Shown: in pieces, positions 41,632-44,693 of the stretch
Layout: every line of letters starts with the position of its first letter
Numbering within the stretch: the first letter of the stretch is position 1
From: Escherichia coli
GTDB lineage: Bacteria > Pseudomonadota > Gammaproteobacteria > Enterobacterales > Enterobacteriaceae
Strand: one strand, 5' to 3'
Assembly: GCF_003334255.1 (NCBI RefSeq)
Contig: NZ_QOWU01000001.1
Length of the DNA stretch: 64,000 nt
Program-made: the position numbers and the translations under genes
The notes under the pieces: generated by a model
Database searches by the model: none
Told to the model about the DNA's origin: nothing
The model's input: the letters and a program-made list of their open reading frames with translations, nothing else

Positions 41632-43056
41632 TTACTGCATTAACAGGTAGATGGTGCTGTCGCCGCGCTGAATGTTGAGTGCCAGCACAGACGGTTTGCT
41701 GTCGAGAACTTTACGCAGTTCAGCGATGTTTTTCACTGCCTGCTGGTTCGCGCCAATAATCACATCACCTTTCTTCAGGCCGATCTGCGCAGCCGGAGTG
41801 CCCGTTTTCACGTTGTTCACTACCACGCCCTGATCTTTGCCTTTGTTGCTCATCTCAGCGCCTTCAATGCCGTTGAAGATGGAGCTGGAATCAACCTGAT
41901 TCTGGCTGCTCTGCTGCAGTTCCAGGTTCACGTTAACCTGCTTACCGTCGCGCAGTAAGCCCAGGGTCAGTTTGCTGCCTACCGGCATAGTACCCACCTG
42001 AGCACGCAGTGCGGCAAAGCTGCTGATCGGCTTACCGTTCAGTGAGGTGATCACATCACCCGCTTTAATGCCCGCTTTTGCAGCGGAGGAATTAGGCAGA
42101 ACCTGGCTTACGAAAGCACCGCGCTGGGCGTCAACTTTCATCGCTTTCGCCAGTTCGGAGTTCAGCTCAGTCCCCATAATACCCAGCTCACCGCGTTTCA
42201 CCTGGCCGTATTCCACCATCTGCGAGGTCAGGTTTTTCACCATGTTACTCGGGATAGCAAAACCGATACCGATGTTGCCGCCGTCCGGTGCGAGGATCGC
42301 GGTGTTGATACCGATCAGTTCGCCGTTCAGGTTAACCAGCGCACCACCGGAGTTACCACGGTTGATCGCTGCATCGGTCTGGATGAAGTTTTCGTAGTTT
42401 TCGGCATTCAGGCCGCTACGCCCCAGCGCAGAGACAATCCCGGAAGTTACCGTCTCGCCCAGACCAAACGGGTTACCAATCGCTACGGTGTAATCACCCA
42501 CGCGCAGTGCATCAGAATCCGCCATCTTAATTGCGGTCAGGTTTTTCGGGTTCTGGATTTGGATCAGCGCGATATCAGAGCGCGGATCTTTGCCAACCAT
42601 CTTCGCGTCGAACTTACGGCCATCGCTCAGTTGAACTTTAATGACCGTCGCGTTATCAACAACGTGGTTGTTGGTGACGACATAGCCTTTATCGGCATCA
42701 ATGATGACGCCGGAACCCAGCGCCATGAATTTCTGTTGCTGGCCGCCACCATTACCGCCCTGGCCACCCTGGCAGAACGGAGAGCTCTGGAACGGAGAAC
42801 CTTCCTGGCAGAACGGAGAATCATCACCGAAGAACTGCTGGAAATTACGCGGCATACGCGGCGTATTAACGGTTGTGCTACCTTCTACGTTAATGCTGAC
42901 CACTGAAGGCATCACCTTTTCGAGCATCGGTGCAAGGCTTGGCATCTGCTGGGCTGTCGTTGCTGAAGAAGTCTCAGCCGCCGTTGCAGAGAGCGGAGAT
43001 AACGCCAAACCTAAACTCAGAGCCAGTGCACTCAGTGCTAATGTGGTTTTTTTCAT
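41632..43056 (-). CDS. degP: Periplasmic serine endoprotease/chaperone DegP (HtrA)
   Basis: 474-aa ORF with a signal peptide, catalytic GNSGGAL motif and two PDZ domains. Confidence 0.96.
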   Translation of the reverse strand: MKKTTLALSALALSLGLALSPLSATAAETSSATTAQQMPSLAPMLEKVMPSVVSINVEGSTTVNTPRMPRNFQQFFGDDSPFCQEGSPFQSSPFCQGGQGGNGGGQQQKFMALGSGVIIDADKGYVVTNNHVVDNATVIKVQLSDGRKFDAKMVGKDPRSDIALIQIQNPKNLTAIKMADSDALRVGDYTVAIGNPFGLGETVTSGIVSALGRSGLNAENYENFIQTDAAINRGNSGGALVNLNGELIGINTAILAPDGGNIGIGFAIPSNMVKNLTSQMVEYGQVKRGELGIMGTELNSELAKAMKVDAQRGAFVSQVLPNSSAAKAGIKAGDVITSLNGKPISSFAALRAQVGTMPVGSKLTLGLLRDGKQVNVNLELQQSSQNQVDSSSIFNGIEGAEMSNKGKDQGVVVNNVKTGTPAAQIGLKKGDVIIGANQQAVKNIAELRKVLDSKPSVLALNIQRGDSTIYLLMQ

Positions 43057-43099
43057 GTATTTCAGTCTCGATTAACAGATAACGCAAAATTGCTGTGTT

Positions 43100-43130
43100 C
43101 TTCAGATTCGTTTTATAGCCTGAAGTTCCG
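43100..43130 (-). promoter_or_regulatory. Sigma-E-type promoter of degP
   Basis: Minus strand reads cGGAACTTcaggctataaaacgaaTCTGAag: -35 GGAACTT, 16-nt spacer, -10 TCTGA, about 45 nt upstream of the degP start. Confidence 0.6.
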
Positions 43131-43185
43131 AACTAAAGTTTCTGCAAAAGGTAAAAATTTATTGTTCGTCTTTACAAAAGCCTGG

Positions 43186-44693
43186 TTATTGTTCTACGGC
43201 CATCAGACGTCGGTATTCATCCCACGCATAGAGGTCGGTCATACCGCTGATATAATCCTGCAGCAGGCGGCAACGGTAATAATATTCCCATAGCGGAAAC
43301 TCAGGAGAATCTGACGGTAATTTACTGACAGCCTCGACATAGGCCAGCCGATGGCGCGTCGAGAGTTTGTGGAATAAGCGCGATTCAATAGGGAAACGTT
43401 TCACCCGTTCTTTTTCTACCAGTTCAGTAAAGTCTGATAACGACAGGCTTAATAAAGGACGATAAATCTCTAATAATCCGCTAATGACCCGATAGCCCTG
43501 CAATTCAAGCTGCTCGACATCTGGATGGCTAAACACATGTTTTACAGCGACATTTTTATATAGCTTAAGAAGATCGCTGCATTCGCTGGCATCTTCCAAT
43601 AATGCATGATTAAACGTTCCGGCGAAAATCGCAGGCAGATTATCAATAAATCGTTGTGCCGCGTAGGGTACCAGTTTATTTAGGGTGTTTACCCGTAAAT
43701 ACATAAAAAACTGATCTTCCGTACTGCGGCTTAAACTATTTGAGCGTGATTTTTCCCAGGCATTTTCAACCACCAGCGAAAAGAGCGAACCTTTCTCATG
43801 CTGGCCCCACGCTTCGTGCAAATGATGATAAAGCTGCTCAACGGTAAATATACCGCATCTTCAAGGTCTGCCACACAATAGGAGATGTCGTCGGCAGCTT
43901 CCATAATCCACGTTAATGGAAAACGACTGTAAAGCGCCAAATTAAGTTCTTTACGCAACCGGGCAATATAGGCTTCTTCAGAAAGATAATAACCCGGCTT
44001 TTTCATTAAATAGTGATGTGTCTCAGGCGTTTCGCCACGCCACCACGCCGGACGGGTATATTTTAAAATACCGCCAACCTGTGCCCAGGTGAGATTCATC
44101 CGCATCAATGTATGCACCAGGCGAATGCCTTGTGCATTCCCCTCAAAATGACATAAGTCCTGACGAATCTTGCGCCGCAGCTCGTTAAGCGGTTCTTCCC
44201 CGTCCCGTAAACGTAGTGCCGCCACGCTGCAGCGATCGTCAGTCAGAGGCTGGCTTTCGGCATCTTCCGGGTGCAAACGTTGGCGAAACCAGTCATTTAT
44301 CGCCGCTTCGCCAAAATGACCAAACGGCGGATTGCCGATATCGTGCATCAGGCATGACATCTCAACAATGCTTTCAAAGGGACCGGTCAGTTCATCCAGG
44401 CCGTATGCTTCCAGTAATTTAAGCTCTTTCAGACGGCTTAAAATTTCTTTGGCGATGTAGCGCCCCACCTGCTGGACTTCCATCGAGTGGGTAAGACGCG
44501 TGCGCACGGCGGCATTGCGCTCCAGTGGAAAAACCTGGGTCTTTTGTTGCAGACGACGAATTGCCGGAGAGTTGATGATACGCCCGCGATCGCTCTCGAA
44601 GATCCGCAGGATCTCATGTTCGGTTTTAACGCCCTGCGGTGAACGGTAACGACGATGCCAGTTTATTTTTTTTCGGAAATCAATCTGTGCCAT
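43186..44693 (-). pseudogene. dgt: dGTP triphosphohydrolase gene, reading frame disrupted by a frameshift
   Basis: The track shows two overlapping ORFs in different frames instead of one 505-codon gene: 43731..44693 (native residues 1-281 plus a 39-aa aberrant tail) and 43186..43821 (native C-terminal part). The span is 1508 nt, against 1518 expected. Confidence 0.8.

Follow-up and report, generated by a model that had tools for sequence, protein, structure and literature searches.

The genes dgt and degP (htrA) lie side by side on the minus strand of the window, i.e., the 64-kb stretch of Escherichia coli DNA that was analysed here, and a 129-bp spacer (43185-43057) separates the dgt stop codon from the ATG of degP. 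The features of the locus are compiled in Table 1. A Shigella origin was considered but set aside: over its 64 kb the window shows 99.97% identity to E. coli KL53, and no IS elements were found within it. The range to which the earlier note had drawn attention (42960-43200) also covers 97 nt at the start of the coding sequence of degP and 15 nt at the end of dgt.

Table 1. Features of the dgt-degP locus, listed in the direction of transcription (positions refer to the window).
Feature	Position	Strand	Remark
dgt, normal extent	44693-43186	-	stop codon TAA at 43188-43186
Truncated dgt frame, 320 aa	44693-43731	-	premature TAA at 43733-43731; ORF list
Out-of-frame 3' part of dgt, 545 nt	43730-43186	-	untranslated from the dgt start
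CpxR site degP2, curated, GTAAATTACCGTCAG	43325-43311	-	15/15 match, Table S1 of PMC9600279
CpxR site degP1, curated, GTAAAGACGAACAAT	43175-43161	-	15/15 match, Table S1 of PMC9600279
First GTAAA pentamer	43175-43171	-	start of degP1
Second GTAAA, inverted (TTTAC on the gene strand)	43150-43154	+	in the conserved A/T block CAATAAATTTTTAC
Sigma-E -35, GGAACTT	43129-43123	-	7/7 consensus positions (consensus: PMC1312014)
TATAAA within the sigma-E spacer	43117-43112	-	possible sigma-70-type -10 by analogy, start would be near 43103
Sigma-E -10, TCTGA	43106-43102	-	16 nt from the -35
5' UTR of degP, inferred, 40 nt	43096-43057	-	+1 = A at 43096
Shine-Dalgarno sequence of degP, GAGA	43069-43066	-	
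degP (htrA) coding sequence, intact, 474 aa	43056-41632	-	ORF list; annotated degP in matching genomes

The lesion in dgt is a 10-bp deletion of AGAGAAAAGA between 43852 and 43851 (alignment to K-12 and to strain 300709). It places a stop codon 545 nt upstream of the normal one, in line with the distance of about 550 nt given in the earlier note. Downstream of the premature stop an in-frame ATG (43704-43702) opens a remnant ORF of 172 aa, and gene callers call a gene there. The deletion is a genuine allele. At least 23 public contigs contain it, public runs with the allele include ERR9882047 and ERR1948968, and an exact copy of the 320-aa truncated product is present in public collections. A sequencing artefact was rejected as its source, as five independent assemblies carry the identical junction; none of 5425 complete E. 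coli genomes contains it. Over the 1901 bases of dgt-degP, the deletion and a SNP at 43511 are the sole differences from K-12, and the promoters of dgt and degP are therefore wild type. The SNP is described as a synonymous-region change.

The promoter of degP lies in the spacer. For sigma-E the consensus reads GGAACTT-16-TCAAA, followed by a discriminator of 5/6 nt (PMC1312014), where a spacing of 15-19 nt is allowed and 16 nt is strongly preferred. The sigma-E-type promoter that the earlier note had described from the sequence is present exactly as GGAACTT and TCTGA, spaced by 16 nt, with the -10 element agreeing with TCAAA in only 3/5 positions (the leading T and C and the last A). DegP is a member of the core sigma-E regulon (PMC1312014), and its promoter belongs to the sigma-E promoters that are active basally (PMC3326320). 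The dependence of degP transcription on sigma-E and on CpxR is taken here from published work, and so are the start sites.

The whole regulatory region is strongly conserved. Of 5425 E. coli genomes, 5343 carry a 301-bp fragment comprising it with an identity of at least 99%, the identity reaches 100% in K-12-type strains, and the order dgt-degP is found in all 79 Enterobacteriaceae species (79/79) with an upstream flank. The arrangement of -35, 16 nt and -10 is present in 71/79 species. Of the other eight, three have a 17-nt spacing, three (Buttiauxella) keep GGAACTT and have no TCTNA at 16 nt, and in the remaining two the region was shortened by the choice of start codon in the analysis. Among the 71 species the -35 element reads GGAACTT (53), GGAACTA (12) or TGAACTT (6), and the -10 element TCTGA (61), TCTTA (7) or TCTCA (3), which corresponds to the pattern TCTNA, always at 16-nt spacing. 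TATAAA is found in the sigma-E spacer of 56/71 species.

That the motifs are chance matches without promoter function is hardly conceivable. Short motifs do recur in general, and if one mismatch is allowed the pattern is found five times where 3.1 matches are expected. The exact GGAACTT-16-TCTGA, on the contrary, is found only once in 64 kb against an expectation of 0.01 (a match occurred in 1/100 shuffles), it lies at the right distance from degP, and its sequence and spacing are kept over the 79 species whereas the flanking bases of the spacer vary. Together with the documented sigma-E promoter of degP, the uniqueness of the exact motif and its conservation across species effectively refute a chance origin.

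Sigma-E promoters start at a purine 5/6 nt past the -10, with 25-28 nt between the -35 and +1. The A at 43096, 5 nt past TCTGA and 26 nt past GGAACTT, has this geometry and would yield a leader of 40 nt. By tagRNA-seq, E. coli 5' ends responsive to the induction of sigma-E were located at K-12 positions 180840/42 (PMC7075262). These correspond to 43100/43098 of the window, i.e., 2-4 nt upstream of the inferred +1, and E. coli degP 5' ends have been reported across 43100-43095. The previously mapped degP start was classed as a processing site in the same tagRNA-seq study (PMC7075262). The fold of the leader is weak (minimum free energy -3 kcal/mol, z 0.69), and RNAalifold on 40 sequences gave no consensus pairs and no covariation for the leader.

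The closest parallel outside E. coli is htrA of Salmonella. In S. enterica subsp. arizonae dgt likewise lies upstream at a distance of 129 nt, 37/40 positions of the 40-nt leader are identical (counted by hand from the sequences), and Salmonella htrA has the same GTAAA...TTTAC block, GGAACTT-16-TCTGA and TATAAA as found here. Salmonella htrA is transcribed with leaders of 40 nt and 47 nt and with a long leader whose start lies within dgt; the 40-nt leader acts as an RNA thermometer, in which a hairpin occludes the Shine-Dalgarno sequence, and Salmonella is the only species for which the additional starts and the thermometer are documented (PMC5602114). The E. coli hexamers TATAAA and TATTAT are placed right for the starts of the 47-nt and 215-nt Salmonella leaders. 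By analogy with the 47-nt 5' UTR, TATAAA probably gives rise to a second nearby degP start.

Upstream of the promoter the earlier note had seen GTAAA-containing repeats that may be CpxR sites. Both pentamers are present, but they form an inverted pair 15 nt apart and are not tandem repeats. The curated site degP1 begins with the first pentamer. Counted from the inferred +1, this site extends from -79 to -65, in agreement with its stated position of -105 from the ATG. The second curated site, degP2, falls inside the coding region of dgt at -255 from the ATG of degP, and the second half of degP2 shows poor conservation between genera. The curated sites are credited to De Wulf 2002 (PMC9600279). 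A search for tandem GTAAA-N5-GTAAA with up to two mismatches gave no match in the dgt-degP spacer; compared with the tandem consensus, degP1 has three mismatches in its second half and degP2 two mismatches overall. Because the tandem consensus is absent from the spacer, the assignment to CpxR rests on the curated sites and on conservation. Induction of degP by Cpx amounts to 26.6-fold in cpxA24 and 32.4-fold upon NlpE overproduction (PMC9600279).

The inverted GTAAA in CAATAAATTTTTAC could be a CpxR half-site and/or part of an UP-element. Conceivably, CAATAAATTTTTAC serves mainly as an A/T-tract UP-element for the alpha subunit of RNA polymerase and only the first GTAAA belongs to CpxR, a reading we consider rather unlikely. 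It is favored by the position of the block, which covers -67 to -54, as the A/T-rich elements of sigma-E promoters lie near -48/-49 and -57/-58 (PMC1312014). Moreover, UP-effects are predicted by the counts of A- and T-tracts, with degP among the active basal promoters (PMC3326320), and ACAAT, the second half of degP1, poorly resembles GTAAA. Beyond mere A/T richness, however, the pentamer TTTAC itself is invariant: GTAAA-15 nt-TTTAC is found in 79/79 species without any change in the gap, and both the invariant pentamer and the invariant gap therefore make it look more like a protein-specific site. TGTAAAG at degP1 is likewise invariant in the 79 species, and TTTAC keeps a fixed distance of 20-21 nt to the -35 across species. 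The UP-element and the CpxR half-site can both hold at the same time.

The exact motif, the identity to K-12, the identity to the curated sites and the conservation in 79 species thus support a degP promoter of the sigma-E type that is preceded by CpxR sites, and the observation of the degP promoter in the earlier note is confirmed. In all likelihood the region is the canonical wild-type degP (htrA) sigma-E/CpxR regulatory region, and the dgt lesion is without consequence for it. Points against this reading are the partial match of the -10 element, the lack of a tandem CpxR consensus in the spacer, and the scatter of the reported 5' ends together with the classification of the earlier start as a processing site. 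Sigma-E RNA polymerase would recognise GGAACTT (-33 to -27) and TCTGA (-10 to -6) and start at about 43096 to give the 40-nt degP leader. CpxR-P would bind the GTAAA block (-79 to about -54) and the second site in the 3' end of dgt, adding an input from Cpx envelope stress. As in Salmonella, the sigma-70-type -10 TATAAA overlapping the sigma-E spacer would give a second nearby start. The deletion in dgt leaves all elements of the degP promoter intact and could at most trim minor read-through into degP from a dgt promoter that is presumably weak.

The degP promoter with its sigma-E and CpxR control is already known from textbooks. E. coli K-12 degPp is identical to the present one in the 301-bp region, the -35, the -10, their spacing, degP1, degP2, the 129-bp spacer and the flanking genes; the promoter is the same, and the differences are the 10-bp dgt deletion about 700 bp upstream and the SNP at 43511. 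As a founding target of both sigma-E and Cpx that is unchanged here, it represents an ordinary regulatory region. Whatever interest the locus has lies in the dgt deletion, with its loss of dGTPase, rather than in degP.

An influence of the dgt lesion on degP via Rho, as proposed in the earlier note, is mechanistically possible but finds little support in the sequence. Ribosomes would stop 545 nt early, Rho would load on the naked dgt RNA and end read-through, and degP expression would be measurably altered; we regard this outcome as very unlikely. Translation from the dgt start is indeed lacking over 674 nt (43730-43057). On the gene strand of E. coli no intrinsic terminator was found between dgt and degP, and weak candidates are present in only 7/79 species; the fold of the spacer region contains just a stem of 4 bp and a loop of 15 nt. 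Without an intrinsic terminator read-through from dgt into degP is possible, and dgt transcripts may therefore normally reach degP. Consistent with this, the Term-seq supplement (PMC7815308) lists for the wild type the 3' end of degP but none within or past dgt, and Salmonella transcripts starting inside dgt do reach htrA (PMC5602114). A rut site is expected to span some 80 nt or more of RNA that is untranslated, C-rich and G-poor. Also in favor of Rho is a modest C-rich patch at 43393-43303 (C/G 1.56, 13-14 YC dimers); the best 78-nt window of the 674-nt stretch, with C/G 1.56, lies at about the 90th percentile of the window background. The stretch as a whole, in contrast, contains 21% C and 22% G, and C exceeds G in 37% of its 78-nt windows compared with 47% in the background.

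Further observations argue against an effect of this kind. The ATG at 43704, 27 nt past the stop and preceded by the Shine-Dalgarno-like GGAAGA, may permit re-initiation, so that the RNA stays occupied by ribosomes. The dgt promoter region has the K-12 sequence, and we take this promoter to be weak. The regulated promoters of degP itself are unchanged, and transcripts from promoters within dgt downstream of the lesion would be unaffected. Data supporting co-transcription of dgt and degP in E. coli were not found in the accessible literature datasets, and the SMRT-Cappable-seq supplement has no entries for dgt or degP. At this locus polarity could remove only a read-through component of degP expression, and we infer that the lesion affects degP to a negligible extent. 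The situation resembles the classical Rho polarity of lac, gal and trp in the early stop, the long untranslated stretch, the co-oriented downstream gene and the missing intrinsic terminator. It differs in that degP has strong regulated promoters of its own and is not a known operon partner of dgt, and in the weak rut-like composition and the close restart codon. If true, polarity would be a small effect of the classical type. More broadly, the lost translation of the dgt 3' part in the deletion lineage might alter degP regulation by a Rho-dependent loss of read-through or by relieved transcriptional interference, a proposal that appears even less probable. It would couple a dGTPase lesion to the level of an envelope-stress protease; in the interference variant, fewer polymerases would pass over the sigma-E promoter and the CpxR sites.

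As read from its sequence, the feature upstream of degP is the known sigma-E/CpxR promoter in wild-type form, and its regulatory block is a deeply conserved module of fixed geometry; both have already been described. The earlier note had placed a sigma-E-type promoter in the dgt-degP spacer, and both elements were found there with the 16-nt gap. GGAACTT-16 nt-TCTGA gives a single match in the window, with 0.01 expected from shuffled sequences. When the pattern was relaxed (TCNNA, one mismatch) five matches were obtained versus 3.1 expected, the degP site being the sole perfect one. 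A one-mismatch motif, GGAACTA-16 nt-TCGAA, lies at 26922-26949 (minus strand) inside rseP and upstream of bamA, and may be the known sigma-E promoter of bamA.

Features of the dgt-degP region
Feature	Position	Strand	Remarks
dgt	44693 to 43186	minus	
dgt-degP spacer	43185-43057	minus	129 bp
degP	43056 to 41632	minus	474 aa, intact
CpxR site degP2, GTAAATTACCGTCAG	43325-43311	minus	inside dgt coding sequence; curated, PMC9600279 Table S1
TATTAT	43284-43279	minus	inside dgt
CpxR site degP1, GTAAAGACGAACAAT	43175-43161	minus	exact 15-mer match; curated, PMC9600279 Table S1
GTAAA	43175-43171	minus	
Second GTAAA	43150-43154	plus	
sigma-E -35, GGAACTT	43129-43123	minus	16 nt before TCTGA
TATAAA	43117-43112	minus	within sigma-E spacer; kept in 56/71 species
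sigma-E -10, TCTGA	43106-43102	minus	

Across 28 mapped sigma-E promoters the consensus reads GGAACTT-16 nt-TCAAA; the discriminator is 5/6 nt, the -35 lies 25-28 nt from +1, and the region upstream is rich in A/T (PMC1312014). The same paper counts DegP as a member of the core sigma-E regulon. The degP promoter is also among those active at basal sigma-E levels (PMC3326320). Applying the consensus geometry puts +1 at A 43096, 5 nt past TCTGA and 26 nt past GGAACTT, with a degP leader of 40 nt; the leader of the stress-induced htrA transcript of Salmonella is likewise 40 nt (PMC5602114). The degP starts predicted from E. coli tagRNA-seq with controlled sigma-E induction, K-12 180840/42 (PMC7075262), correspond to window 43100/43098.

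Salmonella htrA has two further leaders, of 47 nt and of 215 nt, the latter beginning inside dgt (PMC5602114). From its position, TATAAA is a candidate -10 of the sigma-70 type that would serve a start at about 43103, the counterpart of the 47-nt leader, and TATTAT is placed as a candidate -10 for a 215-nt-leader start, with degP2 27-41 nt upstream of it. The leader of S. enterica subsp. arizonae is identical to that of the window at 37/40 positions (manual count). Folding of the degP leader is weak (-3 kcal/mol, z 0.69), and RNAalifold returned no consensus pairs on the leader alignment.

The GTAAA-containing repeats that had been suggested as possible CpxR sites are present, inverted relative to each other across a 15-nt gap rather than directly repeated, and the tandem consensus GTAAA-N5-GTAAA has no match in the spacer at two or fewer mismatches. 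The first pentamer begins the exact degP1 match. Table S1 of PMC9600279 credits degP1 and degP2 to De Wulf et al. 2002, and Cpx activation raises degP 26- to 32-fold (PMC9600279). The degP2 site falls outside the interval given by the earlier note.

Of 5425 complete E. coli genomes, 5343 match the 301-bp stretch 43340-43040 at 99% identity or more, and K-12-type strains match it at 100%. A cross-species scan with one genome per species returned 80 Enterobacteriaceae loci, 79 of them with upstream flank; dgt lies immediately upstream of degP in all 79, and the spacer mostly measures 129-143 nt. The bases directly after the dgt stop vary freely, whereas conservation runs at 80-100% in TGTAAAG, CAATAAATTTTTAC, GGAACT, CTATAAA, TCTGA and a large part of the leader. 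All 79 species have GTAAA-15 nt-TTTAC with no variation in the gap, and the distance between TTTAC and the -35 is always 20-21 nt; the second half of degP2 is without conservation across genera. The conserved A/T block could also be an UP-element, a reading compatible with a CpxR half-site there. [G/T]GAACTN-16 nt-TCTNA was found in 71/79 species. The eight exceptions are three species with 17-nt spacing, three Buttiauxella in which GGAACTT is retained but TCTNA is absent at the 16-nt position, and two sequences shortened by our choice of start codon. In Intestinirhabdus alba a G+C-rich insertion of about 85 nt, a candidate REP-like element or terminator, separates the dgt stop from the GTAAA block and brings the dgt-degP spacer to 214 nt; the regulatory block downstream of it is unchanged.

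The window is E. coli sequence. Across its 64 kb, 10 SNPs, a single 1-bp indel and a 10-bp deletion set it apart from strain KL53, and several complete genomes are essentially identical to the interval 30000-54999. The indel lies at 35281 in the glnD-map intergenic region, where KL53 has an extra G and other close genomes appear to side with the window (match lengths 25010 vs 25011). From mtnN to degP, 1901 bases follow the K-12 sequence except for one SNP at 43511 and the dgt lesion. The lesion is a 10-bp deletion: compared with K-12 and with strain 300709, AGAGAAAAGA is missing at the junction 43852/43851. The premature stop, put about 550 nt before the normal one by the earlier note, lies at 43733-43731, 545 nt ahead of it. 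Since the motif, the GTAAA pentamers, the lesion and the stop were all confirmed, the descriptive statements of that note hold. The deletion is present in 0/5425 complete E. coli genomes, the best of which match at only 99.5% identity because of the deletion gap. However, public protein collections list the exact 320-aa truncated Dgt under two accessions and on 16 contigs, and at least 23 public contigs carry it. Five contigs examined, from independent assemblies, share the deletion junction and the promoter region; this rules out an artefact and, together with the public 320-aa product, shows the deletion to be a real allele. In one of them (L086, SRR31098083) the deletion sits among 11 SNPs spread across 3.9 kb (five in dgt, six in degP), a haplotype that recombination or recurrence could explain, as could a mixed assembly. 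In two complete E. coli genomes, NZ_CP043942.1 and NZ_CP104509.1, dgt is interrupted by insertion sequences of the IS903B and ISVsa5 families; therefore natural disruption of dgt upstream of degP also arises in other ways.

Whether Rho-dependent polarity from the frameshifted dgt alters read-through into degP, as had been proposed, is a separate matter; such an effect is possible but unsupported, and expected to be small. The frameshift leaves 674 nt untranslated ahead of degP, and no intrinsic terminator was found between the two genes; across species a terminator candidate after dgt, weak at best, occurs in only 7/79, and Term-seq lists no dgt 3' end (PMC7815308). However, the 674-nt stretch is not C-rich (C 21%, G 22%): C exceeds G in just 37% of 78-nt windows versus 47% in the background, and the best window, 43393-43303, has a C/G of 1.56, at about the 90th percentile. 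In addition, 27 nt past the premature stop lies an in-frame ATG (43704-43702) with GGAAGA ahead of it (region 43702-43720); gene callers take this ATG as the start of a 172-aa C-terminal fragment of Dgt. Translation might restart there, and re-initiation of this kind could leave the RNA shielded by ribosomes.

The dgt promoter has the wild-type K-12 sequence and is, going by the optA1 literature, a weak one. The lesion would not affect transcripts that begin within dgt downstream of it, the promoters of degP itself are intact, and a search of accessible transcript sets for dgt-degP co-transcription in E. coli gave no data. The only 3' end listed by Term-seq for dgt/degP is that of degP at K-12 182347 (PMC7815308), corresponding to window 41593. 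At this end of degP (41593-41623) a hairpin, CCCCTTCC-loop-GGGAAGGGG, precedes a poor U-run, TTCTCCTT; a simple terminator scan leaves it unflagged.
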